Below, in pieces: positions 8,166 through 26,440 of a stretch of DNA of 64,000 nt. The stretch comes from Paludibacteraceae bacterium (GTDB taxonomy: Bacteria > Bacteroidota > Bacteroidia > Bacteroidales > Paludibacteraceae). The notes beneath the pieces were generated by a model that saw only the letters and a list, made by a program, of their open reading frames with translations, made no database searches and was not told the origin of the DNA. Made by a program: the position numbers and the translations under genes. Numbering within the stretch: the first letter of the stretch is position 1; every line of letters begins with the position of its first letter. The stretch is from assembly GCA_016295035.1 (NCBI GenBank), contig JAEDLW010000001.1, positions 2,149-66,148 on the forward strand, written 5' to 3'.

Positions 8166-9461
8166 ATGGAACTCAAAAACAGAACTATTGCGGTTATCGG
8201 CCTTGGATATGTCGGCCTGCCGCTCGCCATTGAATATGGCAAAAAGTATCGTGTCATCGGATTTGACATCTTCAAAGCACGCGTCGAAGAACTCGATAGA
8301 GGCGAAGACCATACGCTCGAAGCAGATCTCGTCGGAATGAAACAAGCGCGTGAACTCTTCAAATCAACCGGTAAAATCGGACTTTCTTTCACCTCTAACC
8401 CGGAAGAACTCAAACAGGTCAATACCTACATCGTTACAGTCCCTACTCCAATTGACCGTTTTAACAATCCCGACCTCACTCCGCTAATCAAAGCAAGCGA
8501 GACCATCGGAAAAACACTCAACAAAGGAGACATCGTCATCTATGAGTCTACCGTTTACCCGGGCTGCACAGAAGAAGACTGCGTACCTGTACTCGAGAAA
8601 AATAGCGGACTCAAATTCAACAAAGACTTCTTCTGCGGATATAGCCCGGAACGTATCAATCCCGGCGATAAAGTCAATACACTCACTAAAATCAAAAAAA
8701 TCACTTCAGGTTCAACGCCGGAGATAGCCGATATCGTCGATGCACTATACAACTCCATCCTCGAAAACGGCACACACCGCGCACCAAACATGAAAGTAGC
8801 TGAAGCCGCTAAAGCCGTTGAAAACAGCCAACGAGACGTCAACATATCATTTATGAACGAACTCGCACTCATCTGCGACCGCGTAGGAATAGACACCAAC
8901 GACGTCATCGAAGCCGCCGGAACCAAGTGGAACTTCCTCAAATATCGTCCAGGACTCGTTGGAGGGCACTGTATCTCCGTTGATCCGTACTACCTCGCAC
9001 ACAAAGCAAAATCGCTTGGTTACGACCCGAAAGTCATCCTCTCAGGACGTGCAGTCAATAACTCTATCGCAAATTTCATTGCGCATAAAGTACTCAAACT
9101 AATGATTGCTAAAGACCATAAGATTAAGGATGCCAACATCCTCATCTTAGGCGTCACATTTAAAGAAAACTGTCCCGATTGCCGCAACACCAAAGTCGTA
9201 GATATCGCTACCGAGCTTGAGGAATTCGGCTGTAATGTGGACATCTACGACCCGTGGGCTTCTGCAGAAGTCGTAAAACACGAATACGGCAAAGAACTTA
9301 TTCCGGCTATTGACCCAAACAAAAATTATGGCGCTGTCATCGCCTGCGTGAGCCACAACCAATTCAAGTCCTTCGACTTCGCCAAGTACCACAACCAAGG
9401 TGCCGTCATCTTCGACGTCAAAAATTTCGTCGATCGAAACCTCGTAGATAGCCGCCTATAA
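8166..9461 (+). CDS. UDP-N-acetyl-hexosamine 6-dehydrogenase (TviB/WbpO/CapL-like nucleotide-sugar dehydrogenase)
   Basis: It has IAVIGLGYVGLPLAIEYGKKYRVIGFDI..RVEELDRGEDHTLE and the catalytic-region motif GLVGGHCISVDPYY. Confidence 0.8.
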   Translation: MELKNRTIAVIGLGYVGLPLAIEYGKKYRVIGFDIFKARVEELDRGEDHTLEADLVGMKQARELFKSTGKIGLSFTSNPEELKQVNTYIVTVPTPIDRFNNPDLTPLIKASETIGKTLNKGDIVIYESTVYPGCTEEDCVPVLEKNSGLKFNKDFFCGYSPERINPGDKVNTLTKIKKITSGSTPEIADIVDALYNSILENGTHRAPNMKVAEAAKAVENSQRDVNISFMNELALICDRVGIDTNDVIEAAGTKWNFLKYRPGLVGGHCISVDPYYLAHKAKSLGYDPKVILSGRAVNNSIANFIAHKVLKLMIAKDHKIKDANILILGVTFKENCPDCRNTKVVDIATELEEFGCNVDIYDPWASAEVVKHEYGKELIPAIDPNKNYGAVIACVSHNQFKSFDFAKYHNQGAVIFDVKNFVDRNLVDSRL

Positions 9462-9559: not shown

Positions 9560-10801
9560 ATGATGAATATTGCAGTCGCAGGAACAGGATACGTTGGATT
9601 ATCCATAGCCACTTTGCTGGCGCAGCACAACCGCGTTACGGCCGTTGACATTATCCCAGACAAAGTGGATATGATCAATCGCCGACAATCGCCTATTCAA
9701 GACGAATATATTGAGAAATACCTTGCCGAGAAAGAACTAAATCTCAAGGCAACTCTCGACGCTAACGAAGCCTACAAAAACGCGGACTTTGTGGTTATTG
9801 CTGCTCCAACAAACTATGACAGCCAGAAAAACTACTTCGACACATCCGCTGTCGAAACGGTTATCAAGCTCGTCATGGAAATAAACCCAAAGGCTATCAT
9901 GGTGATAAAATCGACTATTCCTGTCGGTTTTACCGATACTATTCGCCATAAGACCGGAAGCAAAAACATCATCTTCTCCCCAGAATTTCTGCGCGAATCA
10001 AAAGCATTATACGACAATCTCTACCCTTCGCGCATCATTGTCGGCTTTAATCAACAAGACGAACACCTCAAACAAGCCGCAGAGACATTCGCTAAACTCC
10101 TGCAAGAAGGCGCTATCAAAACCGATATACCCACTCTCTTTATGGGATCAACTGAAGCGGAAGCCGTTAAACTCTTCGCCAATACATATCTCGCTCTGCG
10201 CGTCAGCTACTTCAACGAACTGGATACCTACGCAGAGATGAAAAGTCTTGATACCAAGCAGATTATAGAAGGCGTCTGTCTCGATCCGCGTATCGGCTCG
10301 CATTATAATAACCCGTCATTCGGATATGGTGGATATTGCTTGCCCAAAGACACGAAACAACTTCTCGCCAACTATCAAGATGTGCCGGAAAACCTCATCG
10401 AAGCAATCGTTGAGAGTAATCGCACTCGTAAAGACTTTATCGCTGACCGCGTACTTGCTAAAGCTGGTTATTACGCATATAGCGAAGAAAATAGCTGGGA
10501 TGCCAAACAGGAAAAAACCGTAACTATCGGCGTTTATCGCTTGACCATGAAATCCAATAGCGACAATTTCCGACAATCGTCTATCCAAGGCATCATGAAA
10601 CGAGTCAAGGCTAAAGGCGCTAAAGTCATTATCTACGAACCAACACTCGAAGACGGTACGACTTTCTTCGGCTCCCTCGTAGTAAACGACCTCAACAAGT
10701 TCAAAGCACTATCCAATGCCATCATCGCTAACCGCTACAACGAAGATTTGGAAGACGTGCAGGAAAAAATATATACTCGAGATATTTTTAAACGAGACTG
10801 A
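9560..10801 (+). CDS. ugd: UDP-glucose 6-dehydrogenase
   Basis: It has [24 protein letters not shown], the catalytic motif [11 protein letters not shown], and a length and architecture typical of Ugd/HasB. Confidence 0.88.
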
Positions 10802-10802: not shown

Positions 10803-11519
10803 ATGATTACAACAGCAGTTATAATGGCGGCAGGAATGGGTACAAGATTCGGAAAAATGACCGACCAACAGCCCAAAGGATTTGTGCTCTTCAAGAACAA
10901 GCCGATGATTCTGCGTTCCATTGACACGCTTATCGCATGTGGCATCAAGCGCATTATTATCGGAACAGGCTATCATAAAGAAGCATACGAAGAATTGTGC
11001 AAAAAGTACCCACAAATCGAGTGCGTCTATAGTCCAAAATACGCCGAAACAAACAGCATGTACACCTTATACAACTGCCGCGAAGCTATCGGAAACGACA
11101 ATTTCCTTTTGTTGGAATCAGATTTGGTCTTTGACCAAGAAGCAATATCATCACTCCTGCGATGTGAGTTTGATTCAGCAATGTTGATTACTTCTGTAAG
11201 AAAATTTCAGGACCAGTACTACGTGGAAATGAACGACAAGCAGGAATTGGTCCGTTGTTCAACCAATAAGGCAGAACTTAATCCTTCTGGAGAATTGGTA
11301 GGAATACATAAAATTAGTAATACCTTCTATCAATTGATGGTTAACGATTATGCTGCCAAAATAGAAAAATATCCAAAGCTTGGCTATGAATATGAACTTT
11401 TAGACATTTCGCAACACAAGTTGCCGCTAAATGTACTGAAAAACGATGCTTGTGTGTGGTACGAGATTGATGATATTGAGGACCTAAACTACGCTCAAGA
11501 GCACATTAAAATGGACTAA
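10803..11519 (+). CDS. LicC/PntC-like nucleotidyltransferase (candidate AEP or phosphoalcohol cytidylyltransferase)
   Basis: I trimmed the track ORF 10716.. to MITTAVIMAAGMGTRFG (ATG at 10803, 2 nt after the ugd stop). It has the G-rich NTP-binding loop AAGMGTRF of the LicC/MobA-like NTP-transferase fold and directly precedes aepX. Confidence 0.75.
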   Translation: MITTAVIMAAGMGTRFGKMTDQQPKGFVLFKNKPMILRSIDTLIACGIKRIIIGTGYHKEAYEELCKKYPQIECVYSPKYAETNSMYTLYNCREAIGNDNFLLLESDLVFDQEAISSLLRCEFDSAMLITSVRKFQDQYYVEMNDKQELVRCSTNKAELNPSGELVGIHKISNTFYQLMVNDYAAKIEKYPKLGYEYELLDISQHKLPLNVLKNDACVWYEIDDIEDLNYAQEHIKMD

Positions 11520-11532
11520 AAAACAAAATAAT

Positions 11533-12843
11533 ATGGCAAAAACAGTTTATCTCGGCATGATTGCCGACATTATGCATCCGGGACTGATTAACATCATCAC
11601 AGAAGGTGCAAAGTACGGAAACGTTATGATTGGCTTGTTTACAGACAAGGCCATTGCTACGCACAAACGCTTGCCTTATCTAAGCTATGAGCAACGAAAA
11701 AATGTGGTAGAACACATCAACGGCGTGAGCGAAGTTGTACCACAAGACGATTGGAGTTATGTTCCAAATCTTAAAAAGTATAAGCCGGATTATATCATTC
11801 ACGGCGATGATTGGAAAGAAGGACCGGATAAATATATTCGCGAGGAAGTATTCGCTTTAATGAAACAACAAGGTGGTGAAGTGATTGAAATTCCATATAC
11901 ACAAGGAATAACATCTTCTGGACTTGCGAAAGAACTGGAATCGCTTGGCACGACACCACAAGCAAGATTGAAATCCTTGCGCAGATTAATCAGCGCAAAA
12001 CCCATTGTACGGATCTTGGAATCTCATTGCGGCTTAACAGGTTTGATTGTTGAACACACTAGCATAGAAGTAGATAATGTGCATAAAGAGTTTGATGGCA
12101 TGTGGTCAAGCTCACTTACCGATTCCACCTCAAAAGGAAAACCCGATATCGAAGCTGTTGATTTAACTACGCGCCTTCACGATTTAAATGATACCCTGGA
12201 GGTAACCACAAAACCAATCATCTATGACGGAGATACAGGAGGAAAAACTGAGCACTTTGCTTTCACTGTTCGCACGCTTGAGCGCTTAGGAATTTCCGCT
12301 ATTATTATCGAAGATAAAGTAGGTCTCAAACAAAATTCTTTGTTCGGTACTGATGCGGTTCAAACACAAGATACAATTGAAAACTTCTGCCATAAAATTC
12401 AAGTCGGAAAAACATCCCAAGTCACAAATGACTTTATGATAATTGCTCGAATCGAATCCTTAATTGCCGGAAAACCAGTGGATGATGCTTTGGAACGTGC
12501 TTTCGCTTACGTTGAAGCAGGTGCTGATGGAGTAATGATTCACTCAAAAAACAAAGACGGAATGGATGTTAAAGAGTTCTGTACACGCTTCAGAATGAAA
12601 GATGCGCACACTCCAATCGTAGTCGTTCCAACTACCTACAACCAATACACGGAAGAAGAACTGGCGACTTGGGGCGTAAACATAGTAATTTATGCCAATC
12701 ATATGTTGCGTAGTGCATATCCGGCCATGGTTCATTGCGCAGAGTCCATTTTAAAACATAGTCGGAGTCTTGAGGCATCAAATGAATATTGTATGCCAAT
12801 CAAAGAAATTCTGAATCTTATTCCGGGAACAAAACAAAAATAA
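11533..12843 (+). CDS. aepX: Phosphoenolpyruvate mutase with a fused N-terminal cytidylyltransferase-like (TagD-fold) domain
   Basis: The N-terminus is TVYLGMIADIMHPGLINII..IIHGDDW, a CTP_transf_like fold with HPGL in place of HxGH. The C-terminal ~290 aa is the isocitrate-lyase/PEP-mutase fold (GMWSSSLTDSTSKGKPDIE, IIEDK). Confidence 0.85.
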   Translation: MAKTVYLGMIADIMHPGLINIITEGAKYGNVMIGLFTDKAIATHKRLPYLSYEQRKNVVEHINGVSEVVPQDDWSYVPNLKKYKPDYIIHGDDWKEGPDKYIREEVFALMKQQGGEVIEIPYTQGITSSGLAKELESLGTTPQARLKSLRRLISAKPIVRILESHCGLTGLIVEHTSIEVDNVHKEFDGMWSSSLTDSTSKGKPDIEAVDLTTRLHDLNDTLEVTTKPIIYDGDTGGKTEHFAFTVRTLERLGISAIIIEDKVGLKQNSLFGTDAVQTQDTIENFCHKIQVGKTSQVTNDFMIIARIESLIAGKPVDDALERAFAYVEAGADGVMIHSKNKDGMDVKEFCTRFRMKDAHTPIVVVPTTYNQYTEEELATWGVNIVIYANHMLRSAYPAMVHCAESILKHSRSLEASNEYCMPIKEILNLIPGTKQK

Positions 12844-12844
12844 C

Positions 12845-13972
12845 ATGATACGACCAAGTTTTTTCATTGATACGCTTGTAGCACAAGGCATTCAGTTCTT
12901 TGCAGGAGTACCGGATTCTCTGCTGAAGAATTTATGTGCCTACATTACCGATAGCATCGAACCAAAGCACAACATTATTGCCGCAAACGAAGGGGGTGCA
13001 GTCGCATTGGCTGCAGGATATCACCTCGCTACTGGCAAAATAGGAATGGTATACATGCAAAATTCTGGGGAAGGCAACACCATCAATCCTTTAGCCTCAT
13101 TAACGGATAAGGATGTATACAACATCCCGCTTTTACTAGTTATCGGATGGCGCGGCAAACCGGGCATACACGATGAACCACAACATGTCAAACAAGGCAA
13201 AGTCACACTACCACTACTGGAAACAATGGGAATTCCATATGCTGTACTGGATAAAGAAGAAACTTCGGCACAGGAACAAATTCTAAAAGCTATTGAATAC
13301 ATTAAGGCAACCAATGAAGCCTATGCAATAGTGATCGAAAAAGACACCTTTGACACGTATAAACTGCCTTCCGCAGTCCCGACATTACCTTTGAGCCGCG
13401 AAGAGGCCATACAACAAGTAGCTGGAAGAATTGGTAAAAAAGATGTTATCGTTAGCACAACAGGAATGATTTCACGAGAATTGTTCGAATATCGTGCAGG
13501 AAAGAATGAAGGACACGAACGGGATTTTTTAACCGTTGGTTCAATGGGACACGCTTCACAGATTGCATTAGGCATCGCATTAGAACAGCCACAAAGACAT
13601 GTTTGGTGCTTTGACGGAGATGGTGCCACCATTATGCATATGGGTAATATGGCTATTGTCGGTACACAAGCTCCTAAAAACTACATTCATGTCATTTTCA
13701 ACAATGGAGCACATGATTCGGTCGGAGGTCAACCAACTGTAGGCCTACAAATAGACCTTCCTCAACTTGCTACTGCGATGAAATATAAAACAGTACTAAA
13801 CGCATCTACTAAAGAAGAACTGAATGCAGCTTTGCAACAATTACAAACGGCCGAATTACCTGCTTTGTTGCAAATCTGCGTGCGCAAAGGTAACCGCGCT
13901 GATCTTGGTAGACCGACTACCACTCCACAACAAAATAAACAAGCATTTATGAACTTCCTTAAACAACAATAA
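12845..13972 (+). CDS. aepY: Phosphonopyruvate decarboxylase (TPP-dependent)
   Basis: It has FFAGVPDSLLKNLCAYI and the TPP motif DGDGATIMHMGN...NNGAHDS. It sits between aepX and the AEP transaminase. Confidence 0.88.
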   Translation: MIRPSFFIDTLVAQGIQFFAGVPDSLLKNLCAYITDSIEPKHNIIAANEGGAVALAAGYHLATGKIGMVYMQNSGEGNTINPLASLTDKDVYNIPLLLVIGWRGKPGIHDEPQHVKQGKVTLPLLETMGIPYAVLDKEETSAQEQILKAIEYIKATNEAYAIVIEKDTFDTYKLPSAVPTLPLSREEAIQQVAGRIGKKDVIVSTTGMISRELFEYRAGKNEGHERDFLTVGSMGHASQIALGIALEQPQRHVWCFDGDGATIMHMGNMAIVGTQAPKNYIHVIFNNGAHDSVGGQPTVGLQIDLPQLATAMKYKTVLNASTKEELNAALQQLQTAELPALLQICVRKGNRADLGRPTTTPQQNKQAFMNFLKQQ

Positions 13973-13973
13973 T

Positions 13974-15098
13974 ATGGAACAGATGCATATCAAACGTAAC
14001 ATTTTGCTCAATCCTGGACCCGCAACAACGACTGATACTGTCAAATTAGCTCAGGTCGTTCCCGATATCTGTCCGCGAGAAAAAGAATTTGCTGGACTAA
14101 TGAAAGGATTACGAAACGATCTATTAAAATTGGCACATGCCAATCCAAACGAATACACATCCGTTCTATTTTGCGGCTCAGGTACCATCAATATGGATAT
14201 CTGTCTAAACTCACTATTGCCGGAAGGTAAACAAATTCTAGTGGTTAACAATGGTGCCTACTCGACACGTGCTGTTGAAGTATGTAATGCATATCATTTA
14301 CCACATATTGATCTCAAATCATCTGTATTTGAACGTCCTGATTTGGCAAAAGTTGAACAGACGCTTAAAGAAAACCCTGATATCGCCATTGTCTACACAA
14401 CACACCACGAAACTGGAACGGGCTTGCTCAATCCGATTCGAGAGATTGGTGCTTTGGCTCACAAGTATGATGCCATATTCGTCACAGATACGACTTCATC
14501 ACTTGGAATGATTCCTGTAGATGTTGAAAAAGACAATATTGATTTCTGCTTTGCATCTGCACAAAAAGGCATCATGGCCATGGCTGGTCTATCATTTGTA
14601 ATAGGTCGTGAGCAAATTATCCGTGCATCAAAGAATTACCCTACCCGTTCGTATTACTGCAATCTATTTCTACAATACGACTACTTTGAGAAAACAGGAG
14701 AAATGCACTTCACACCACCCGTACAGACAATATATGCAACTATTCAGGCTCTAAAAGAGTTTTTTGAGGAAGGAGAGGATGCCAAATTCGCTCGGCATCA
14801 CAGAGCATACGAAGCAATTCATGACGGAATTGACAAACTGGGTCTGAAAACAGTAATAGATAGAAATATTGAATCCGGTTTAGTTGTATCAGTCCAGTAT
14901 CCGGATGATCCAAACTGGAGTTTTGAGAAAGTACATGACTATTGCTACGAAAAAGGATTTACCATTTATCCGGGAAAAATTAGTACATCGGATACTTTCC
15001 GCCTGTGCGCATTGGGAGCAATAGATGAGCAAGACATTAAGGATTTCTTTGTGGTATTCCGTGAAGCGTTGAATAAATTTGAAATAAAGCACAAATAA
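13974..15098 (+). CDS. aepZ: 2-aminoethylphosphonate:pyruvate aminotransferase
   Basis: It has LLNPGPATTTDTVK, the class-V aminotransferase pattern and the PLP lysine region FASAQKG. It completes the aepXYZ trio. Confidence 0.85.
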   Translation: MEQMHIKRNILLNPGPATTTDTVKLAQVVPDICPREKEFAGLMKGLRNDLLKLAHANPNEYTSVLFCGSGTINMDICLNSLLPEGKQILVVNNGAYSTRAVEVCNAYHLPHIDLKSSVFERPDLAKVEQTLKENPDIAIVYTTHHETGTGLLNPIREIGALAHKYDAIFVTDTTSSLGMIPVDVEKDNIDFCFASAQKGIMAMAGLSFVIGREQIIRASKNYPTRSYYCNLFLQYDYFEKTGEMHFTPPVQTIYATIQALKEFFEEGEDAKFARHHRAYEAIHDGIDKLGLKTVIDRNIESGLVVSVQYPDDPNWSFEKVHDYCYEKGFTIYPGKISTSDTFRLCALGAIDEQDIKDFFVVFREALNKFEIKHK

Positions 15099-16540
15099 TG
15101 CCCGATACGCTGAAGAAACAGACTATAACTGGAGTCTTTTGGAGTGGCCTCGAAAGATTCTCAGTACAAGGAGTAACTTTTTTAGTACAACTTGTTCTGG
15201 CTCGTCTATTGACTCCTAATGAATACGGATTAATCGGGATGTTAGTTGTTTTTCTTCAGATCGGTCAAGTGTTTATAGATAGTGGTTTTGCCAATGCTCT
15301 TATTCAAAAGAAAGAATGCACACCAGCAGATTTCGCTACTGTATTTTACTATAATCTACTATTATCGCTTGCCATTTACGCTATTCTTTTCTTTACCGCG
15401 CCATTTATAGCCTCATTTTACGATCAAGATATTCTTATACCCTTGTTAAGGCTGTTATCACTAACATTGATAATCAATGCATTAGCTATAGTCCAGAAAA
15501 CCATTCTTATTAAGCGAGTCGATTTTAGGACACAAACTAAAGTATCACTATTTAGTGCAATCTTATCAGGCATTATAGGTATATCATTAGCATCTAAATC
15601 ATTCGGAGTGTGGGCATTATGCTGGCAACAAATTAGCTTTAGCTTTTTACAACTATTTTTATACACTTTATATGTTCATTGGTTACCTAATTCAAAATTC
15701 AGCAAAGAATCGTTTATCCAATTATTTAATTTTGGTTCTAAACTATTAATCTCTAGCTTAATTAGCGTAATCTACAAAAATTTATACTCGGTTGTTATAG
15801 GAAAAAAATTCACAGCAGCAGAATTAGGTTATTATACTCGAGCCGAGCAATTTGCAATGTTTCCTTCCAATAACCTAGGTAACATTATTGCTCGAGTTGC
15901 CTTTCCTATTTTTAGTAAAATTCAAGATGACACCCCCAAACTATGTACTGCCTATCGTAGAATCATACAATACTCATCGTACATTATATTTCCTTTGATG
16001 TGTGGCTTGATAGCAATTGCTGAGCCTTTGATAACTGTATTACTCACAGAAAAATGGTTAGGCATCGTACCACTTTTACAGATTTTATGCATCGATTGGA
16101 TGTTGGATCATCTTAGTATAATAAATCTTAATCTTTTGTATGTTAAAGGACGATCTGATTGGGCATTGCGTTTAGAGATAATAAAAAAAATTATAGCTAT
16201 TATTATTTTAATCGCTACAATTCCGTTTGGATTAACGATAATGTGCTGGGGGAGAGTGTTATATTCTATTATTGCTACCATCATCAATACTCATTATACT
16301 CGTATCCTCATCAATCTTAATTTTTTCCAGCAGATGATAGATATCATACCATATTTGATTGGAGCACTAGTCATGGCCGCTATTGTTTATGGAGTAAATT
16401 TACTTATATCTACATCCATTTCCCAAGTCATTATTGGGATGCTGATAGGAGTAATTACTTATGCGATTATCACTTTCATTTGCTATAAAGGAATACGAAC
16501 GCGCTTGATTTGTTACATAAAAAACAGAAAAAGAGAATAA
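15098..16540 (+). CDS. wzx: Wzx-type polysaccharide flippase (MOP superfamily)
   Basis: The 480-aa protein has many TM helices and the N-terminal motif VQLVLARLLTPNEYGLIGM typical of RfbX/Wzx. TAATG stop/start overlap with aepZ. Confidence 0.8.
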   Translation: MPDTLKKQTITGVFWSGLERFSVQGVTFLVQLVLARLLTPNEYGLIGMLVVFLQIGQVFIDSGFANALIQKKECTPADFATVFYYNLLLSLAIYAILFFTAPFIASFYDQDILIPLLRLLSLTLIINALAIVQKTILIKRVDFRTQTKVSLFSAILSGIIGISLASKSFGVWALCWQQISFSFLQLFLYTLYVHWLPNSKFSKESFIQLFNFGSKLLISSLISVIYKNLYSVVIGKKFTAAELGYYTRAEQFAMFPSNNLGNIIARVAFPIFSKIQDDTPKLCTAYRRIIQYSSYIIFPLMCGLIAIAEPLITVLLTEKWLGIVPLLQILCIDWMLDHLSIINLNLLYVKGRSDWALRLEIIKKIIAIIILIATIPFGLTIMCWGRVLYSIIATIINTHYTRILINLNFFQQMIDIIPYLIGALVMAAIVYGVNLLISTSISQVIIGMLIGVITYAIITFICYKGIRTRLICYIKNRKRE

Positions 16541-17830
16541 GTGGATTTTTTTACTAAACATATAATAATCCCATTTTGGAAAACACGATTTGGACAAATA
16601 CTTCACCAATTGATTGATTGGTGCAAAATTACTTATTATATTTACTTCTTAAAACCGAAAATAGAAAAGCGAATTGCTAAGCAAGATAAATTAAGTATCG
16701 TGTTTTTTGTGATTAATATTTCTATGTGGAAAGCAGACAGCATTGTAAAGGAGTTATTAAGTAATCCACATTACGATATCCATATCGTTAGTTTTCTATA
16801 TCCGCAATTTACTATTGAGCGCAGAAAAGAGATGCAAAAACAGATGGAAGAATTCTTTACAAAAAAGAACTATCCGTACATTAACAGCTATGATTTTAGC
16901 ACCAATACCTATTTCGACATTCGCACTTTACATCCGGATATCATTTTTTATAATCAACCATATAATTTAGGCTATTCCGGATATCAATTACAGCATTTTT
17001 GGAAAACATCGCTTTTTGCATATATACCATATTGTTTAAATATTGAGAAAAATGATGTTTTTTACGATACTTTATATATCAATGTATGTAAATATGTTTT
17101 CCTTCCAACGCAATTGGATTTATCTCTAGTGCAATCCAAGACAAAAACAAAGGCATATAATTGTAAAGTCGTTGGCAATTTATTCTACGATGAATTAAAA
17201 GAAGCACAGCATTCTGATCATAATGTTTGGAAAGATAATACTCGAAAACACATCATTTGGGCTCCCCATCATTCTATTTTGCCGAATGACGAATTACAAT
17301 ATTCTACATTTCTTAGGTATGCCAATTATATGTTATATTTGGCTGATAAATATAAAGATGTTGTTGAGTTTGCATTCAAGCCGCATCCTGCACTCAAAGA
17401 TAAGCTTTATCAATCGCCGGATTGGGGGTATGAGCGGACTAATCAATATTATACGAAATGGGCAAACATGTCCAATACATTTATAGCAGACGGATCCTAT
17501 GTAAATTTATTTGTGCAATCGGATGCTATGATACATGACTGTTCAACCTTTAGTTGTGAATACCTATACACCAACAAACCTGTCCTGTTTTTACTAAAGG
17601 AAACTAATAGTACACCCTTAACTGAGTTAGGCGCTTCTTGTCTGAACATGCACTACCATGCATATCAAGAAAATGAAATAGAAGAATTTATAAATAATGT
17701 CATATCCGGAATTGATGTTCTGAAGAAACAACGACACTATTTTGTAGAACATAATCTTACAAAATTTGACGACACATCAACAACATCAAATATTATCCAG
17801 GAACTGAATAATCTGTTTATATCACAATGA
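16541..17830 (+). CDS. CDP-glycerol glycerophosphotransferase-family (TagB/TagF-like) protein
   Basis: It has a GTG start. Motifs IIWAPHHS, FKPHP and SDAMIHDCSTFSCEYLYTNKPV align by eye with the Glyphos_transf patterns (yAPTwR / HP / DvLITDYSS..fDf...kP). Confidence 0.65.
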   Translation: MDFFTKHIIIPFWKTRFGQILHQLIDWCKITYYIYFLKPKIEKRIAKQDKLSIVFFVINISMWKADSIVKELLSNPHYDIHIVSFLYPQFTIERRKEMQKQMEEFFTKKNYPYINSYDFSTNTYFDIRTLHPDIIFYNQPYNLGYSGYQLQHFWKTSLFAYIPYCLNIEKNDVFYDTLYINVCKYVFLPTQLDLSLVQSKTKTKAYNCKVVGNLFYDELKEAQHSDHNVWKDNTRKHIIWAPHHSILPNDELQYSTFLRYANYMLYLADKYKDVVEFAFKPHPALKDKLYQSPDWGYERTNQYYTKWANMSNTFIADGSYVNLFVQSDAMIHDCSTFSCEYLYTNKPVLFLLKETNSTPLTELGASCLNMHYHAYQENEIEEFINNVISGIDVLKKQRHYFVEHNLTKFDDTSTTSNIIQELNNLFISQ

Positions 17831-19023
17831 GAACCATCCTATTTTTACATCATATCTCCAGCATAGGCGGCGGAAGTTTTTGCTTACTTAACATACTCCG
17901 CGAAATAGACCGCAGTTTATTTCGCCCGATTGTGCTACTGAAAGAACCAGGTCCGTTAACAAACGAGTTAAGCCAATTGGGAATAACTTTTTACTTCTTG
18001 AGTGATATGACTGTTGTTCCATATAATCAATCTATTTTAAAATTCAACACGCTCATATCTTATATTGGCATCCGCAGGTCATTGCGCTCCTTTAGTGCAT
18101 TCCTATCCAAGCACCAGGACATAGATATTGTGTACTTAAACAACATGATGCTAACTCCATATCTTAGAATAGCCAAACAGCATCATAAAAAAACATTAAT
18201 TCATATTAGAGAACATTGGCCGCTGGATGAACACACTTTACAACTACGCAGAATACAAAATACAATATATCAGCATGCAGATCAAGTCGTTGCCATCAAT
18301 AAATATAGTGCTTCTCTGTGCCACAACATAGATAATCGTCAAATACATATTATCTACGACTGGATTGATTTCAGTGAGCGGTATAAAAGCTTGCCTTTGC
18401 ATGATATCCTTAAAGAAGATACATTTGGACTTAAAGTCTTTTTGTATACTGGAGGGACAAGTAGGATTAAGGGGAGTTTGCAAATATTAAGGACTTTTCA
18501 TAGCATCAAAAGGGATAATTATAGATTAATCATATTGGGTGATAATTTTAACATTTCAACTATAGGCTTACGCGGAAAACTAAAGTTATTTTTGCATAGA
18601 ATAGGCTATAACACATATCAATACAGGCTCAGGAGCATCATAGACTCTGATTCTCGTATTTTTATCATTCCCGCGACATATAAGATCCAACATCTATTGC
18701 AACAAGTAGATTGCGTATTAAGTTATTTTACTATACCCCATGCTAATTTGATATTGGCAGAGTCCATTATTAACAATACCATATGCATAGCTTCCAAGAA
18801 CGAAGAAGCATTAGAATATTCAGACAATGGGAAATTAGCCCTATTATTCACAGCAAACGATATGATGGATTTTCGCAATACTATCTTATCGTTTGAATCT
18901 AAGTCAAAAGATTTAAAAGACAGACTACAACACGAATCGTTTAAAATAAAATGTTTATTTGATAAAAAAAATAACGTTAATAAGCTTAACGCACTACTCA
19001 AAAGTTTATCATCAGAATGTTAG
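17827..19023 (+). CDS. Glycosyltransferase, GT4/GT1-like (GT-B fold)
   Basis: The 398-aa protein starts RTILFLHHISSIGGGSF and has a GT-B-like C-terminal half. It overlaps the upstream gene by 4 nt. The call rests on context and weak motifs. Confidence 0.6.
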   Translation: MRTILFLHHISSIGGGSFCLLNILREIDRSLFRPIVLLKEPGPLTNELSQLGITFYFLSDMTVVPYNQSILKFNTLISYIGIRRSLRSFSAFLSKHQDIDIVYLNNMMLTPYLRIAKQHHKKTLIHIREHWPLDEHTLQLRRIQNTIYQHADQVVAINKYSASLCHNIDNRQIHIIYDWIDFSERYKSLPLHDILKEDTFGLKVFLYTGGTSRIKGSLQILRTFHSIKRDNYRLIILGDNFNISTIGLRGKLKLFLHRIGYNTYQYRLRSIIDSDSRIFIIPATYKIQHLLQQVDCVLSYFTIPHANLILAESIINNTICIASKNEEALEYSDNGKLALLFTANDMMDFRNTILSFESKSKDLKDRLQHESFKIKCLFDKKNNVNKLNALLKSLSSEC

Positions 19024-19035
19024 AAAAATATTAAA

Positions 19036-20142
19036 ATGAACGTAGTAATCATTATTAGTATATTAGCTCTTCTATTGTCCATTCTCCAATCAGTAGGAGT
19101 ATTTCGTAAAGGACTGATGTTAGGTTTTGTGCTCACTACCTTTCTGTTAATAATTCATTTTAACTTTGGTAATGATTATGCGACCTATTACGAATGGTTT
19201 TTAGATGTACTTAACTCCCATTACTCTTTTTCAGAGCTTTTCGAGCCAAACACATTTCTAAAAGACCCAGGATGGTTTGTTTTATACTGGCTTTTTGCAT
19301 TAATCTTTGGAAAAGGGGGCTTCTTCGTTATGGTTGCTATTATTTCAATCATTGAAGGAGTTATATATTATAAAATCATACGCAAATACGTACCGGAAAA
19401 GTGGTATTGGCTAGCAATGTTTATATATCTATTCCAAACGTGTTTATATCCTCTCACATTCTCAATGATGCGCCAAGCATTAGTTTTGGCACTCATTCTT
19501 ATTATCTACGGAAACGTTAGAGAGAGAAAACATATAGCACAGAGCATTATATTGTTGGTTATAAGCTTCTTCATCCATAAATCATCCATATTCTTTATAC
19601 CATTTTTATTTATCAATTACCTCCCTCTTAAATATGGCAAAAATATATCCATTACGTTAATCATCTTCCTTTTGACCTTTTTATTTCTAAATCGTATAAC
19701 GCATCGTGTACTTGATTACATTATGCAGATACCTTTCTTTGTTAATTATGGTTCGATATATGGCAATGCTAACGTTACCATTACTTTTGGTTTGGGATAT
19801 TTTTTAAGGCTAATAATGTTTGGCGTACTTTTATACTACCTTAGAACAAAAGAAACAGAGGATAAATATAGAGATTATGTATTGTTAGCGGCTTTTAGTA
19901 TCATTATCCTTCCATTTGAAACAATTATACCTCTAATCACGCGCGTAAACTACTATTTTCAAGTGTTTTATATTATAGCCATCCCATTAGCATATGATAA
20001 TATCAAAAACACCCTTTTAAGAAACGGATTGTTATTATTTTTTATTATATTCGAAATTTATAGTTATTCGCTGTTCTGTGCCCCCTCATCTATTTTTTAC
20101 GAGGGTTACCAACATTTCCATACTATATTCAGTACTATTTAA
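19036..20142 (+). CDS. wzy: EpsG-family polysaccharide polymerase (Wzy-like)
   Basis: The 368-aa protein has about 10 or more TM helices and the FGNDYATYYEWF motif typical of EpsG. It lies in the AT-rich core of the locus. Confidence 0.65.
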   Translation: MNVVIIISILALLLSILQSVGVFRKGLMLGFVLTTFLLIIHFNFGNDYATYYEWFLDVLNSHYSFSELFEPNTFLKDPGWFVLYWLFALIFGKGGFFVMVAIISIIEGVIYYKIIRKYVPEKWYWLAMFIYLFQTCLYPLTFSMMRQALVLALILIIYGNVRERKHIAQSIILLVISFFIHKSSIFFIPFLFINYLPLKYGKNISITLIIFLLTFLFLNRITHRVLDYIMQIPFFVNYGSIYGNANVTITFGLGYFLRLIMFGVLLYYLRTKETEDKYRDYVLLAAFSIIILPFETIIPLITRVNYYFQVFYIIAIPLAYDNIKNTLLRNGLLLFFIIFEIYSYSLFCAPSSIFYEGYQHFHTIFSTI

Positions 20143-20156
20143 TAAAAAACAAGTCT

Positions 20157-21383
20157 ATGCAAATATTATACGTATCAACAAGTTGCTCTCAACGCCTTGC
20201 CAACAAGCTTTTTGAAGAAACGCACAGAGATCCTGGATTTCAAATAGTTAAGTTTACCCGACTACTTCTTGAGGGATTCTGCCATAATAGTGCCTGTGTG
20301 GAATCATTGTGTGGTATTTCTGCTAGGACAAAACGTTTTTTCTGGAAAGAACCTAACGAAGTTATTAACAATGTCAAGTATCAATATATTCCTTTTGTCA
20401 ATTTAATATTTATTCGGCAACTTTGTGTGCAAATAGGAGCATTTTTCAAGACTATAAGTTGGATTTTTCGCACTAGGAAACATGCTCAAAATAGAATAAT
20501 TATTCATGATGTTCTAGCCAACTCCGCCTGTTCCGGCTCGAAATTAGCAGCTGACATCTGGAATGTGCCAACTTGTGCACTCGTTACCGATATGCCGGGT
20601 TTGAGCGCGATAGAAAAAGCTCAAAACAAAAAGGGGTATTATAATCATTTCCTTCATACCAGAACTAAGCAAATTCTAAGAAGGATTAATTCATATTCTT
20701 CTTACATTCTACTCACCGAACAAATGAATTCCGTAATCAACACCAATCATCGCCCATTTGTTATAATGGAAGGACTAGTTGATACTTCTGCGCAATTAGC
20801 GCCATCTACAATAGCCAAAACGTTTCCTCGTGTTATCCTCTATGCGGGCGCATTGGTCGAACAATATGGAGTAAAGGCAATGGTTGATGCTGTATTGCAA
20901 TCTTCTCACACAGATATTGAACTTCACCTATATGGTGATGACAAAGATAGTGGCTTTGCCAACTACATTCGTTCTTGTGCGGCGCAAGATAAGCGCATCG
21001 TATATAAAGGGGTTGCTAAAAATGAAGATATCGTTAAAGCGGAAATATCCGCGTCCTTACTCGTCAATCCAAGATTTACAAATCAAGAAATCACTAGGTA
21101 TTCGTTCCCTTCCAAGAATATGGAGTATATGGTATCTGGAACTCCGCTGTTAACAACTTGCCTGCCTGGTATGCCTGTAGAATATAATGAATATGTATAT
21201 CTATTTGACAACGAGACGGCTGAAGGATATGCAAAAAAAATCGACGAAATTATGAATTTAAGTCCTGAAGACTTGCAATGTAAAGGAAAGGCCGCAAAAG
21301 AATTTGTTTTGAAAGAAAAAAATCACATTAAGCAAGCTCAAAAAATAATAACAATGTTAAAAACTATTGTTCATGACAAGTAA
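20157..21383 (+). CDS. Glycosyltransferase family 4 (GT-B)
   Basis: The C-terminal region reads RYSFPSKNMEYMVSGTPLLTT, resembling the GT4 E-x7-E region. Confidence 0.65.
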   Translation: MQILYVSTSCSQRLANKLFEETHRDPGFQIVKFTRLLLEGFCHNSACVESLCGISARTKRFFWKEPNEVINNVKYQYIPFVNLIFIRQLCVQIGAFFKTISWIFRTRKHAQNRIIIHDVLANSACSGSKLAADIWNVPTCALVTDMPGLSAIEKAQNKKGYYNHFLHTRTKQILRRINSYSSYILLTEQMNSVINTNHRPFVIMEGLVDTSAQLAPSTIAKTFPRVILYAGALVEQYGVKAMVDAVLQSSHTDIELHLYGDDKDSGFANYIRSCAAQDKRIVYKGVAKNEDIVKAEISASLLVNPRFTNQEITRYSFPSKNMEYMVSGTPLLTTCLPGMPVEYNEYVYLFDNETAEGYAKKIDEIMNLSPEDLQCKGKAAKEFVLKEKNHIKQAQKIITMLKTIVHDK

Positions 21384-22389
21384 CATTCGATTTCTTAGTA
21401 TTATCATTCCTTGCTATAATGTAGCGGATTACCTATTGGGAACCATTGATAGTCTTCGCAACTTAAAAGATGCTGAAGATTGTGAGTTTATATTCATAAA
21501 TGATGGATCCACAGATAACACATTCAAAATCATCAAAGATTATGCAAAAACAGATAATCGCGTTCTGGTTATAAATCAAAAGAACGCCGGAGTGTCCGCA
21601 GCTCGTAATGCCGCAATTCGAATTGCCAATGGCAAATATATATTACCATTGGATGGAGATGACAGATTGACATTACAAGCTATTTCTGTAATAAAAAACA
21701 GCATCCTAGATGCGGATATGTTAATTTGTCCTGTTCAAATAGTTACAGCTGATAAAACAATTGACACATCACTTCCATTTCCTGAAGCGGAATACACGCC
21801 CTACACACTTTTCAAAGCTTGCCATACTTTCCCAACAGCTCCCAAATTAGTTTACAAAACTTCTATTCTAAAAACATATGACATCAAATTTAACGAGACC
21901 ATCCATTCTGGCGAAGTTTTAACTTTTTCACTCAATTTCCTCAAATATTGCAGTACCATCTATGTCTCGCATAAATCATTTTATCAATATGTTATGCGCG
22001 AAACCAGTGCTATACATGCGCCAAATTTTAGCAAAGATTTAACCGTATTGGAGATTATTGATGCCATTTGTCAAAACACCAATAACGCTATTATAAATCT
22101 TCCTTCGTTCTGGGCAACGCTCTTTAAAATGTGTGCCTCGTTTACCTATAATAAATACGCTAAATTAGGACTTATGGATGGTTCAACTCTCAAAATTATT
22201 AATGGTGTGCTAAAACACAAAACATTTAGGAAATGTATACAAAAACTAGCATTTTCTTTTGGGCAATATAATTTTGACCGTCTCTTGGCTATTTATATCT
22301 TCACTACAGGTTTATGGGGTTACAAATTGTTGGCATGGTATTTTTCATTAAAAAATAATCAAAAATATTCAGAAAATTTGCATATATAA
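21373..22389 (+). CDS. Glycosyltransferase family 2
   Basis: It has LSIIIPCYNVADYL..FIFINDGSTDNT..LPLDGDD (the DxD motif). I used the ATG at 21373; the track start at 21367 is TTG. Confidence 0.8.
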   Translation: MTSNIRFLSIIIPCYNVADYLLGTIDSLRNLKDAEDCEFIFINDGSTDNTFKIIKDYAKTDNRVLVINQKNAGVSAARNAAIRIANGKYILPLDGDDRLTLQAISVIKNSILDADMLICPVQIVTADKTIDTSLPFPEAEYTPYTLFKACHTFPTAPKLVYKTSILKTYDIKFNETIHSGEVLTFSLNFLKYCSTIYVSHKSFYQYVMRETSAIHAPNFSKDLTVLEIIDAICQNTNNAIINLPSFWATLFKMCASFTYNKYAKLGLMDGSTLKIINGVLKHKTFRKCIQKLAFSFGQYNFDRLLAIYIFTTGLWGYKLLAWYFSLKNNQKYSENLHI

Positions 22390-22428
22390 AAAAAAAGAAG
22401 TAATTTTGCGCGTTATTTGATAAACGTG

Positions 22429-23058
22429 ATGAAACAACTCATTATTATAGGTGCTGGAGGCATGGGGCGTACCTTATATGACCTGGCTCGAGAAAGTATA
22501 GGTTTTGATGTAGATTTCATTATAAAAGGGTTTATTGACGACAATACCTTGGCTTTAAATGGATATGAAAACTATCCTCCCATTATAGGAACAATTAATG
22601 ATTACCAGCCTTCAATTGACGAAGTCTTTATTTGTTCTATTGGTGGAGCAGCGCGTCGTAAATGTATAGAAAAGATCGTTTCCAAAGGAGGTTCTTTTCT
22701 GACTATGATCCATAAGACTGCGCGTATTGGAACTAATGTTGTTATTGGAGCAGGATCTATTGTAGGTGCCTTTACTGCCATTGGAGCTGATGCAAAAATT
22801 GGTAGATTTAATCTCATTCAATCACAAACCATTATTGGACACGACAGTAAAATAGGAGATTGGAATCGTATCGACACACATGTAACATTGGTTGGAGGTA
22901 CCATCGTTGAAGACGAAACAGATATCCATACAGCAGCAGTGATTGGTCACAATGTTACAATTGAAAGCAACTCTCGCGTAGCAGCTTGCAGTTTTGTAAT
23001 ACGTCGTGTCAAATCTGGTACAACCGTAATGGGAAACCCAGCCAAACGGCTGATGTAA
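22429..23058 (+). CDS. NeuD/PglD-family left-handed beta-helix sugar N-acyl/acetyltransferase
   Basis: It has the N-terminal Rossmann-like motif LIIIGAGGMGR followed by hexapeptide repeats (IGTNVVIGAGSIVGAFTAIGADAKIG...). Confidence 0.75.
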   Translation: MKQLIIIGAGGMGRTLYDLARESIGFDVDFIIKGFIDDNTLALNGYENYPPIIGTINDYQPSIDEVFICSIGGAARRKCIEKIVSKGGSFLTMIHKTARIGTNVVIGAGSIVGAFTAIGADAKIGRFNLIQSQTIIGHDSKIGDWNRIDTHVTLVGGTIVEDETDIHTAAVIGHNVTIESNSRVAACSFVIRRVKSGTTVMGNPAKRLM

Positions 23059-23089
23059 AAGAATAAAAGCTAAATGATTAGATAAATTT

Positions 23090-23317
23090 ATGGATATACA
23101 AAATTTTATTCAAAACTTTGCTGAGCAGTTCGATGAGCTGAATACCGAACTGACTCCAGAAACGCGCTTCCGTGAAGTGGAAGGCTGGACATCATTGGTT
23201 GCTTTACTCGTTATCACAATGATTGATGATGAATATGGAGTAGTATTGCCTCCTGAAGAAATGCGTAAGACCCAAACTATTCAAGAACTTTTTGACTTGA
23301 CTCAAAGCAAACTTTGA
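23090..23317 (+). CDS. Acyl carrier protein (PP-binding)
   Basis: The 75-aa acidic protein has a candidate phosphopantetheine Ser in EGWTSLVAL. Confidence 0.65.
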   Translation: MDIQNFIQNFAEQFDELNTELTPETRFREVEGWTSLVALLVITMIDDEYGVVLPPEEMRKTQTIQELFDLTQSKL

Positions 23318-23326
23318 TCATTTGTT

Positions 23327-24070
23327 ATGTACAATCCATTTTCACTCTTAGGTAAGACCATTTTAGTCACAGGAGCCTCTTCCGGTATCGGACGGGCGAC
23401 AGCAATAGAGTGCTCTCGAATGGGAGCACGTTGCGTCATTACTGGTCGTAATATGCAGAGATTACAACAGACTTGTCATGCTCTTGAGGGGAATGGACAT
23501 ATACTAATTATAGCGGATTTGTCAAAACAAGACGAAATTGATACTTTGGTGGAATCCATTCCGAACATTGATGGATTAGTAAATAATGCCGGCATTGGTT
23601 TACAAAAACCTATTTCATATATTAAACAAGAAGATCTTGAAAATGTATTTCAAGTTAATACATTCGCCCCTATTCTTTTAACGAAGGCGCTATTACGCAA
23701 AAAAAAGATTAAAAAGAACGGATCTATTGTATTTACTTCCTCAATTTCAGCTTTCGAAAGTAATTTTGGGCGCGCAGTATATGGTGCCTCCAAATCAGCT
23801 ATAATGGCTTATATGCATTACTGCGCACGCGAATTAGCTGGAAAACCTATACGCGCGAATGCCGTTCATCCTGCAATGACAGAAACTCCACTAATTTATT
23901 CTGGCACCTTAACCGAAGAAGATCGACAACGCGACATGATGCAATACCCTCTTAAAAGGTATGCTAAACCAGAAGAAATAGCATATGCCATTATCTATTT
24001 ATTATCTGATGCATCTTCCTGGACAACAGGTACATCTTTGATTGTAGATGGTGGATTGTCGCTTTTGTAA
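23327..24070 (+). CDS. SDR-family oxidoreductase (FabG-like)
   Basis: It has TGASSGIGRA and the catalytic motif YGASKSA. Confidence 0.85.
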   Translation: MYNPFSLLGKTILVTGASSGIGRATAIECSRMGARCVITGRNMQRLQQTCHALEGNGHILIIADLSKQDEIDTLVESIPNIDGLVNNAGIGLQKPISYIKQEDLENVFQVNTFAPILLTKALLRKKKIKKNGSIVFTSSISAFESNFGRAVYGASKSAIMAYMHYCARELAGKPIRANAVHPAMTETPLIYSGTLTEEDRQRDMMQYPLKRYAKPEEIAYAIIYLLSDASSWTTGTSLIVDGGLSLL

Positions 24071-24099
24071 GTATTGAGTTTTAAATTAAATTAAAATAT

Positions 24100-24825: not shown

Positions 24826-24828
24826 TAC

Positions 24829-26181: not shown

Positions 26182-26186
26182 TTGTT

Positions 26187-26426: not shown

Positions 26427-26440
26427 ATATTAATTGGTTT

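Follow-up and report, generated by a model that had tools for sequence, protein, structure and literature searches.

The TagF-like protein encoded by the last gene of a phosphonate operon in an uncultured rumen Bacteroidales is a candidate for the enzyme that transfers 2-aminoethylphosphonate (AEP) from CMP-AEP to a glycan repeat unit. We consider this to be the best reading of the locus and give it a probability of roughly 0.6. The operon (10803-17830 of the window, the window being the whole 64,000-nucleotide stretch analyzed) consists of six genes, all on the + strand and separated by gaps of -4 to +13 bp. It lies within what is predicted to be a Wzx/Wzy-type capsule or O-glycan locus having AEP on its repeat unit. 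Two dehydrogenase-family genes upstream of the phosphonate cassette are the start of the glycan locus. The source organism is a MAG, and its glycan is predicted from the genes. Pfam matches back the domains of the six genes, and the features are as follows.

8166-9461 and 9560-10801, + strand: two UDP-glucose/GDP-mannose dehydrogenase-family genes (Pfam PF03721/PF00984/PF03720)
10803-11519, + strand: PntC-type (LicC-fold) cytidylyltransferase, 238 aa (6pd1 match, Pfam NTP_transf_3)
11533-12843, + strand: AepX, a Fom1-like cytidylyltransferase (CyTase) domain fused to PEP mutase (5x3d, 5unc, TIGR02320)
12845-13972, + strand: AepY, phosphonopyruvate decarboxylase, a TPP decarboxylase (TIGR03297)
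13974-15098, + strand: AepZ, 2-aminoethylphosphonate aminotransferase, class-V (TIGR03301)
15098-16540, + strand: Wzx-type flippase (Pfam Polysacc_synt_3, E 2e-94)
16541-17830, + strand: TagF-like GT-B protein, 429 aa, GTG start (PF04464, predicted structure, neighbourhoods, tree)
17827-33221, + strand: remainder of the Wzx/Wzy glycan locus (Pfam)

By Pfam, the remainder encodes a GT4, an EpsG-type Wzy, a second GT4, a GT2, a PglD-like acetyltransferase and an acyl-carrier cassette, and it also contains FnlA/B/C-like genes, a hexapeptide transferase, a Bac_transf initiating transferase and a DegT aminotransferase. Pfam searches detected no further nucleotidyltransferase or phosphotransferase in 17827-33221, and neither a second cytidylyl donor pathway nor a second phosphotransferase in the window locus. 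This agrees with the first-pass annotation, which had called the TagF-like protein located after Wzx the only phosphotransferase-like enzyme of the locus.

AEP synthesis and the two nucleotidyltransferase folds

All three enzymes of the AEP pathway exceeded their NCBIfam equivalog cut-offs: the PEP mutase with TIGR02320 (407 bits, cut-off 320), the phosphonopyruvate decarboxylase with TIGR03297 (505 bits, cut-off 312) and AepZ with TIGR03301 (463 bits, cut-off 361). AepX matched PDB 5unc (E 2e-43); its PEP mutase part spans residues ~145-433, and the PEP mutase (Ppm) motif EDKxxxxxNS reads EDKVGLKQNS. Conversion of PEP to AEP via PEP mutase, phosphonopyruvate decarboxylase and AepZ, the aepX/aepY/aepZ pathway named in the first-pass annotation, is thus shown by strong homology. 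The two nucleotidyltransferase folds listed there were also recovered, one as a separate protein resembling 6pd1 and the other as a fused domain resembling 5x3d, each with its Pfam domain.

The separate 238-aa protein aligned over its full length with Treponema denticola PntC (6pd1, E 7e-39; the value for LicC, 1jyk, was E 5e-16). Its GxG(T/S)Rx8PK signature is intact (GMGTR...PK) and reads GMGTRFGKMTDQQPK. Its predicted reaction is the formation of CMP-AEP from CTP and AEP. In AepX, PF01467 and PF13714 are found in one ORF and the CyTase domain (residues ~4-135) aligned over residues 4-133 with the Fom1 CyTase (5x3d, E 3e-42), with HPGL at the position of the 5x3d HPGH and hence a departure from the HxGH motif. 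Sequencing or assembly error was rejected as the source of HPGL because all 120 of the 120 closest homologues of AepX have it.

HPGL is a clade trait of AEP-type fusions. The second His was absent from all 15 AEP-type fusions examined (14 loci among the TagF-like relatives plus L091), which read HPGL, HHGL or HPGI, whereas HxGH was kept in 22 of 22 hydroxyethylphosphonate (HEP)-type fusions, in which Fe-ADH replaces the transaminase. Among 73 cluster representatives of CyTase-Ppm fusions, 59 have HxGH, seven have HxG(L/I) and seven are otherwise degenerate. For 14 of the 15 AEP-type fusions a PntC-type gene could be located; 10 of 14 AEP loci contain it themselves, and for three of the other four it is elsewhere in the genome (67-68% identical). 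This strict covariation, in which the second His is missing with AepZ and present with Fe-ADH, supports the earlier suspicion that HPGL is degenerate. Because loss of the HxGH motif tracks AEP-type loci that have PntC, AEP activation in the window locus is probably carried out by PntC and the fused CyTase domain is probably catalytically impaired. The fused Fom1-like domain, whose motif has Leu where the second His would be, may be kept for another role, either structural or nucleotide-binding. The HEP-type relatives with HxGH are, judged by sequence, the true functional analogues of Fom1.

A rather unlikely alternative is that both nucleotidyltransferase modules are active: the HPGL domain would retain cytidylyltransferase activity on AEP or an intermediate, and PntC would be redundant or have a different substrate, perhaps as part of a second activation step. 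The AEP-locus fused domains are 72-82% identical between Bacteroidales and Smithellaceae and retain the first His, the Gly and the GI(T/N/D)SS motif; the domain is therefore under purifying selection and, as the remainder of it is highly conserved, may retain some activity. In the AEP-type genome G403 no PntC was found, and Rice et al. describe clusters having fused plus separate nucleotidyltransferases, neither of which is termed inactive (PMC6697681). However, the second His is missing precisely in the fusions that occur with AepZ, and all but one of these AEP-type fusions also have a PntC-type gene. Moreover, glycerol-3-phosphate and choline-phosphate cytidylyltransferases need both His residues of HxGH for catalysis. 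The PntC homologues, for their part, are proven AEP cytidylyltransferases (PMC6697681).

A TagF-like candidate for the transfer step

The window TagF-like protein scored 21.5 bits with PF04464, 0.6 bits under the cut-off of 22.1, and PF04464 was the sole Pfam match in 30 of 32 aligned relatives (best E 5e-14). Its AlphaFold model (pLDDT 89.8) was compared with known structures by two methods. Foldseek alone placed UDP-GlcNAc 2-epimerases first, whereas the Foldseek-independent VIA comparison placed Bcs3 (Z 22.1), TagF 3l7i (Z 21.5) and TarL 8va1 (Z 21.5) on top by a small margin, with the 2-epimerases near (Z 20-21). Sequence and profile searches of PDB chains with the TagF-like protein gave nothing meaningful and reached no solved chain, and the TagF/TarL residue mapping is accordingly based on motifs, spacing and a weak hhalign alignment of C-domain motifs.

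A long N-terminal helix spans residues 2-46. Residues H243, K280-P-H282-P, H332-D333 and R398 are invariant in the TagF-like family, H282 across all 85 members. The APxx, KPHP and HDCS motifs align with APTW, RPHP and SDLS of a canonical PF04464 subfamily, the KPHP His falling on the RPHP His (weak hhalign, E 0.02). In the canonical enzymes the C-domain His (TagF H584/TarL H433) contacts the donor phosphate, and H282 would be its counterpart by motif and spacing rather than by superposition. The catalytic base of those enzymes is an N-domain His, TagF H444 or TarL H300 (W299-H300) (PMC10901376). The 85 family members have no invariant His in residues 1-235; N-domain conservation falls on F55, W63, K64, D133, Q139, P140, P163 and Y164. 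The TagB/TagF-family identity first assigned to the protein stands as to fold and to PF04464 in its relatives, but it is weaker by the sequence of the protein itself, and the canonical N-domain catalytic His is absent. No positions separating the phosphonate/choline clade from the glycerol/ribitol clade passed the thresholds.

In the family tree, the window protein falls within a fully supported clade of 31 rows, of which 17 are Ppm-associated and two (L009 and L023) have a LicC-like gene, choline kinase and a BCCT transporter but no LicD. The other clade, of 54 rows, consists mostly of proteins adjoining TagD or TarI/J. A cytidylyltransferase-type gene is within a few kb of about 60 of the 85 family members, and the adjoining donor pathway is TagD, TarI/J, a LicC-choline kinase set or a phosphonate cassette. 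Each family member appears to use the cytidylyl-activated head group encoded beside it. Note that 11 of the 31 clade members were at first recorded as 'none', with no donor pathway inside the search distance. These included L009 and L023, where the choline set is present, and L016, where a LicC-aminotransferase fusion lies some 4.6 kb upstream; eight of the 31 lack a donor pathway within 10 kb.

A PEP mutase gene was found within 8 kb in 21 of 80 loci related to the TagF-like gene. In seven of these 21, Smithellaceae being represented among them, the TagF-like gene directly adjoins the final phosphonate or PntC gene (-46 to +18 bp), and in 32 of the 80 a Wzx gene of this cluster is 150 bp or less away. 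In the two relatives at 69% identity gene order is conserved, either for AepZ-Wzx-TagF-like or for the entire cassette. In an even sample of the order, 9 of 15 HEP loci have a gene of another, separate PF04464 subfamily immediately after CyTase-Ppm-Ppd-FeADH. We favor AEP transfer by the TagF-like enzyme because its family members adjoin local cytidylyl donor pathways, with the recurrence, abutment and synteny just described, and because these neighbourhoods extend over several lineages and two PF04464 subfamilies. Among 401 genomes sampled evenly across the order, that of the window itself was the only one with Ppm and this TagF-like subfamily at a single locus; in one other genome (G344) the two lie on separate contigs. 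AEP cassettes at other loci are accompanied by LicD, a CDP-alcohol phosphatidyltransferase or a sulfotransferase-like gene.

In the proposed mechanism, PntC would make CMP-AEP and the TagF-like GT-B enzyme would work on the cytoplasmic face of the membrane, where it would aid attack of a sugar hydroxyl of the undecaprenyl-PP-linked repeat unit on the phosphonyl phosphorus of CMP-AEP. CMP would leave and a sugar-O-P(O2)-CH2CH2NH3+ ester would remain, chemistry like that of TagF/TarL with CDP-glycerol or CDP-ribitol, and Wzx would afterwards flip the AEP-modified unit. No TagF-like enzyme is known to use a CMP-phosphonate as donor.

We think it unlikely that AEP is moved by another enzyme, either a LicD encoded elsewhere in the genome or an unrecognised transferase, and that the TagF-like protein uses another donor such as CDP-glycerol. 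The first-pass statement that no LicD-type transferase is visible is correct for the window, which contains none; however, a whole-genome search found one LicD gene on another contig (C2) of the same genome. LicD-like enzymes are the only transferases suggested for phosphonyl tailoring in Pnt clusters, although none has been demonstrated (PMC6697681). LicD is present in nine of the 80 TagF-like loci, six of them phosphonate loci and mostly of one subclade, and in L116 it lies right after the AEP cassette. The C2 LicD gene, however, belongs to a different glycan locus, in which it directly follows its own cytidylyltransferase-oxidoreductase fusion and an aminotransferase. The TagD-like domain of that fusion, a conceivable source of CDP-glycerol, scored 106 bits with TIGR01518, below the equivalog cut-off of 165, and no free-standing TagD or TarI was found in the genome. 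Moreover, in 15 of the 21 TagF-like loci that carry phosphonate genes LicD is absent within 10 kb, among them the locus of the syntenic 69% relative, and direct abutment on phosphonate genes likewise argues for the TagF-like gene. The combination in L009 and L023 of a TagF-like gene with LicC, choline kinase and a transporter, and with no LicD, suggests that the TagF-like family is a non-orthologous replacement of LicD.

It is highly improbable that the TagF-like protein is some other GT-B enzyme (a glycosyltransferase or epimerase-like protein) with AEP going to lipid or remaining free: the 2-epimerase scores (first in Foldseek, close to a tie in VIA), the absent N-domain His and the lipid-type operon with a CDP-alcohol phosphatidyltransferase in which the closest AepX homologues (86% identity) are found point that way, but PF04464 is the only Pfam family of the relatives, most family members are near a cytidylyltransferase-type gene, the C-domain motifs align with those of the canonical subfamily, and the window locus already has a true 2-epimerase and, by Pfam, no CDP-alcohol phosphatidyltransferase.

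The observations counted against AEP transfer by the TagF-like enzyme included the PF04464 shortfall, the empty sequence and profile searches of PDB chains, the lack of the N-domain His, the 2-epimerase scores, the C2 LicD, the nine loci with LicD, the sole co-locus genome among the 401, the 'none' clade members and the pairing of AEP cassettes elsewhere with other transferase types. A broader proposal is tentative, with somewhat less than an even chance of being right. The divergent TagF-like GT-B clade would be a previously unrecognised class of head-group transferases for Wzx/Wzy units that replaces LicD, uses CMP- or CDP-activated groups of zwitterionic or small polar character (AEP, 2-hydroxyethylphosphonate, phosphocholine, amino-alcohol phosphates), performs the last phosphonyl-tailoring step and does so without the TagF base His; the fused AEP-type CyTase would be a conserved pseudo-enzyme, its second His lost once PntC took over.

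Relation to known systems

Rice et al. 2019 wrote that the phosphonyl tailoring steps 'remain enigmatic' (PMC6697681), and our literature search found no paper tying TagF-like enzymes (PF04464) to phosphonates and nothing on CMP-AEP transfer beyond that work. The step from CMP-AEP to a surface glycan is thus an acknowledged gap for which the pairing of a phosphonate cassette with a TagF-like gene gives a concrete and assayable candidate. Knowledge of the transferase would allow genome-based prediction and engineering of phosphonate-decorated capsules. The HxGH/HxGL split gives a simple sequence rule for PEP mutase fusions: the HEP-type probably activate their own product, and the AEP-type probably rely on a separate PntC.

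AEP renders Bacteroides fragilis polysaccharide B zwitterionic, the property that underlies its T-cell-modulating activity. The locus for that capsule contains aepX, aepY and aepZ with a PF01467-Ppm fusion (PMC8942020). The window shares with it the three-gene route to AEP within a Bacteroidales capsule locus, and differs in coming from an uncultured rumen species and in its glycan gene set. Fom1 of Streptomyces wedmorensis (PDB 5X3D) has the CyTase-PEP mutase architecture of AepX; however, Fom1 has HPGH and cytidylylates 2-hydroxyethylphosphonate, whereas the window protein has HPGL, an AEP (transaminase) pathway and a separate PntC. The known PntC proteins nearest to the window protein are those of T. 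denticola (Tde1415, PDB 6PD1/6PD2) and Atopobium rimae; the window protein has the PntC signature and aligned over its full length with 6pd1, although Tde1415 is fused to an AEP transaminase and the window PntC is free-standing.

LicD phosphocholine transferases (PF04991) take a small zwitterionic head group from its cytidylyl donor and place it on a glycan, the role proposed for the TagF-like protein, and in other loci fill the same slot beside AEP cassettes, but their fold and family are unrelated to it. The polyol-phosphate transferases TagF, TarL and TagB (PF04464; PDB 3L7I, 8VA1) and the TagF-like domains of capsule polymerases (Bcs3, 8A0C) have the GT-B fold of the window protein. They also have in common with it an N-terminal amphipathic helix and C-domain motifs that include the K-x-H-P His, and the predicted chemistry is that of TagF/TarL, a hydroxyl attacking the phosphorus that adjoins CMP, which leaves. 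The window family lacks an invariant N-domain His and has three other invariant residues, H243, H332 and R398. The proposed donor is a CMP-phosphonate with a C-P bond rather than a CDP-polyol, and the window protein is probably a single-addition decorator of a Gram-negative Wzx/Wzy locus and no polymerase.

AEP synthesis and probable activation genes of the glycan locus

A single Wzx/Wzy-type glycan locus spans 8166-33221 on the + strand. Within it, the six genes of the 2-aminoethylphosphonate (AEP) stretch are tightly packed or overlapping, and the stretch has the boundaries given in the first-pass annotation:

10803-11519, + strand: LicC-fold NTP-transferase (PntC-type)
11533-12843, + strand: CTP_transf_like plus PEP_mutase fusion (AepX)
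12845-13972, + strand: TPP decarboxylase (AepY)
13974-15098, + strand: class-V aminotransferase (AepZ)
15098-16540, + strand: Wzx
16541-17830, + strand: 429-aa TagF-like protein with a weak Glyphos_transf match

The NCBIfam equivalog models for PEP mutase (Ppm), phosphonopyruvate decarboxylase (Ppd) and AEP aminotransferase were all matched well over their cut-offs, and the Ppm-specific EDKxxxxxNS motif was found in the window PEP mutase. These matches and the motif indicate that the established three-step route to AEP is encoded, and thus the aepX, aepY and aepZ assignments made earlier for 10803-17830 were borne out. The same annotation had described two nucleotidyltransferase folds, a separate LicC/PntC-like protein and a domain fused to the PEP mutase, and matches to 6pd1 and 5x3d, respectively, confirmed both. 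The free-standing transferase matched Treponema denticola PntC (6pd1) with E 7e-39 versus E 5e-16 for pneumococcal LicC, and it retains the GxG(T/S)Rx8PK signature. AEP is the preferred substrate of PntC (Rice et al., PMC6697681).

The N-terminal domain of the mutase aligned to 5x3d across 130 residues (E 3e-42), and in this alignment HPGL of the window domain, with Leu18 in place of the second histidine, occupies the position of HPGH. 5x3d is the cytidylyltransferase (CyTase) domain of Fom1, the substrate of which is 2-hydroxyethylphosphonate (HEP). The earlier suspicion that HPGL may be a degenerate HxGH motif was supported by the absence of the second histidine from all of the AEP-type fusions examined.

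The GC content of the Wzx-to-GT2 core including the TagF-like gene (15098-22389) is 33-37%, that of the AEP cassette is 41-42% and that of the flanks is 44-47%. AepX homologues reach 86% identity, and homologues of the TagF-like protein reach at most 69% outside its own species. A mosaic, serotype-specific core fits these contrasts.

State of the HxGH motif across CyTase-Ppm fusions

HPGL is common to 120 of the 120 closest AepX homologues. The motif was compared between fusions accompanied by AepZ and those accompanied by an iron alcohol dehydrogenase, using loci that had been collected for other purposes. When the fusion is followed by Ppd and AepZ, the second histidine is missing in every case (14 loci with relatives of the TagF-like protein plus locus L091), the motif being HPGL in Bacteroidales, HHGL in Smithellaceae and HPGI in L091. 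In the HEP route, where an iron alcohol dehydrogenase takes the place of AepZ after Ppd, HxGH is kept in 22 of 22 loci. A PntC gene lies inside 10 of the 14 AEP loci, a PntC 67-68% identical is found elsewhere in the genome for three of the remaining four, and L091 has PntC as a fusion with AepZ. Among 73 cluster representatives of CyTase-Ppm fusions the motif is HxGH in 59, HxG(L/I) in 7 and otherwise degenerate in 7.

Both HxGH histidines are catalytic in this superfamily, as established for the glycerol-3-phosphate and choline-phosphate cytidylyltransferases. The simplest reading of the sequences is that the HEP-type fusions would activate their own product, as does Fom1, whereas the AEP-type fusions would have ceded activation to PntC and retain an impaired domain. 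As the remainder of the AEP-type domain is highly conserved, it must still do something. Note that the loci are mutually related and hence the covariation of HxGH with AepZ may reflect merely two or three evolutionary events.

Other arrangements were also seen. Six loci (L002:5778-7787, L010, L012, L022, L025 and L026) encode 669-aa triple fusions of a LicC-like NTP-transferase, CyTase and PEP mutase, in which the CyTase keeps HSGH and has lost the C-terminal GISS-type motif (YSSDPKY instead). The triple-fusion genes are followed by Ppd, the iron alcohol dehydrogenase and directly thereafter a TagF-like gene, and several of these loci also contain LicD. At L102:9174-11835 tandem CyTase-Ppm paralogues (HPGH and HTGH) adjoin Ppd and a LicD-like gene, with neither AepZ nor the iron alcohol dehydrogenase detected.

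The TagF-like protein and its gene neighbourhoods

From sequence alone the Pfam PF04464 match of the TagF-like protein is marginal (21.5 bits, cut-off 22.1); no NCBIfam family was matched, and sequence and profile searches found no matching PDB chain. Its relatives of comparable length number more than 200, and PF04464 was the sole match in 30 of 32 aligned relatives. Its structural model (pLDDT 89.8) aligned best to Bcs3, TagF and TarL (Z 21.5-22.1), with UDP-GlcNAc 2-epimerases a close second. The C-domain motifs WAPHH, FKPHP and HDCS align with APTW, RPHP and SDLS of a canonical PF04464 subfamily and thus H282 probably corresponds to TarL H433 and TagF H584.

Pfam searches found no other cytidylyl donor pathway or phosphotransferase candidate in the window glycan locus, in keeping with the proposal that the TagF-like protein is its sole phosphotransferase candidate. 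The accompanying statement that no LicD is visible held for this locus but not genome-wide, as one LicD gene is present on another contig of the genome (C2). There it belongs to a second glycan locus, immediately downstream of an aminotransferase and a TagD-like-oxidoreductase fusion. This LicD could act in trans, or the C2 TagD-like fusion could feed CDP-glycerol to the TagF-like enzyme. LicD and a TagF-like gene do occur together in 9 of the best 80 loci; most of these belong to a single phosphonate subclade, in which their division of labour is ambiguous. The source genome (an uncultured rumen Bacteroidales; 1.47-Mb assembly, 92% estimated completeness) gave no IspD (PF01128) match over cut-off, and a genome search found no free-standing TagD or TarI. 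Alongside LicD and the TagD-like cytidylyltransferase, whose fusion partner is a GFO/IDH/MocA oxidoreductase, the C2 locus (L084:149-9315) encodes an FrhB-like Fe-S protein, a pyruvyl transferase, GT2, GT11, an acyltransferase and the aminotransferase, which is HisC/CobD-like. Its product is probably another cytidylyl-activated head group, an amino-alcohol or polyol phosphate.

Neighbourhoods were read at the 80 best of 413 TagF-like-related loci in species-representative genomes. In these 80 loci the family adjoins whichever cytidylyl donor pathway its locus has: TagD-like, TarI or fused TarI/J, a LicC-aminotransferase fusion or a phosphonate cassette (21 of the 80). The TagF-like start lies -46 to +18 bp from the last phosphonate or PntC gene in seven loci, including those of two Smithellaceae genomes from another phylum. 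A maximum-likelihood tree split the family with full support. The window protein falls within a 31-row clade having 17 phosphonate-associated rows (11 AEP and 6 HEP), and the other clade (54 rows) mostly adjoins TagD or TarI/J, with four phosphonate cases. Synteny with the window is seen for both of the nearest relatives (69% identity), and one has the full PntC-AepX-AepY-AepZ-Wzx-TagF-like order. In a 45% relative the glycan genes are retained without the AEP cassette, and a LicC-aminotransferase fusion lies at the end of the locus. The TagF-like/phosphonate pairing recurs across loci and is not specific to the window. Two other members of the 31-row clade lie in capsule loci (L009:3582-7620, of the cultured Barnesiella sp. 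WM24, and L023:4358-8342) with a LicC-like transferase, choline kinase and BCCT transporter and no LicD; the TagF-like protein is the sole head-group transferase candidate and these loci would decorate with phosphocholine without LicD.

Seen from the Ppm side, the pairing is by no means universal: AEP cassettes also accompany LicD, a CDP-alcohol phosphatidyltransferase (lipid-type operon) or a sulfotransferase-like gene. Among 401 evenly sampled genomes of the order, Ppm and this TagF-like subfamily shared a locus in the window's genome alone. In this sample a different PF04464 protein (48 bits) is encoded by the next gene in 9 of 15 HEP-type operons, which points the same way as an independent indication of phosphonate handling by TagF-like proteins. 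Phosphonate locus L117 contains a third PF04464 gene.

In those nine HEP-type operons (L092:13312-17670 and also L089, L090 and L093-L098), CyTase(HxGH)-Ppm, Ppd and the iron alcohol dehydrogenase precede two conserved genes, the first encoding a distinct 413-aa PF04464 protein and the second a ~1000-aa membrane protein with YidC-like (60KD_IMP) and sulfatase/LtaS-like domains; the pair constitutes an undescribed envelope module. The closest AepX homologues (86% identity, HPGL) lie in lipid-type operons (L107:7192-13568 and L108-L114) with a CDP-alcohol phosphatidyltransferase, an LPG_synthase_TM-NTP_transferase fusion, AepY and AepZ, which predicts phosphonolipids in other rumen Bacteroidales. 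The PntC-containing AEP cassette at L115:9001-14354 has neither a TagF-like nor a LicD gene within 9 kb; directly after it comes a Sulfotransfer_3-family gene, a possible further phosphonyl-transfer candidate.

Proposed transfer reaction and comparison with known systems

In the proposed reaction, a sugar hydroxyl would make a TagF-type in-line attack on CMP-AEP, releasing CMP and leaving an AEP monoester, the linkage type of Bacteroides fragilis polysaccharide B. The TagF-like enzyme would work on the lipid-linked repeat unit prior to flipping. The gene lies within 150 bp of Wzx in 32 of the best 80 loci; this frequent adjacency and a long N-terminal helix fit a site at the cytoplasmic membrane face.

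The AEP pathway, PntC, PF01467-Ppm fusions and multi-nucleotidyltransferase clusters have been described, with LicD-like enzymes named as likely transferases; both reports are silent on TagF-like enzymes and on whether HxGH is intact (PMC6697681, PMC8942020). A full-text search found no literature tying PF04464 or TagF to phosphonates, although most subscription journals lie outside its coverage and absence is unproven. In TagF and TarL the N-domain residues H444 and H300, respectively, serve as base (PMC10901376), whereas the window protein's family has no invariant histidine in that domain. Given this difference, the marginal sequence match and a firmer family context (PF04464, the structural model and the C-domain motifs), the TagF-like protein is classed as a divergent relative that probably functions like TagF, rather than a canonical member.
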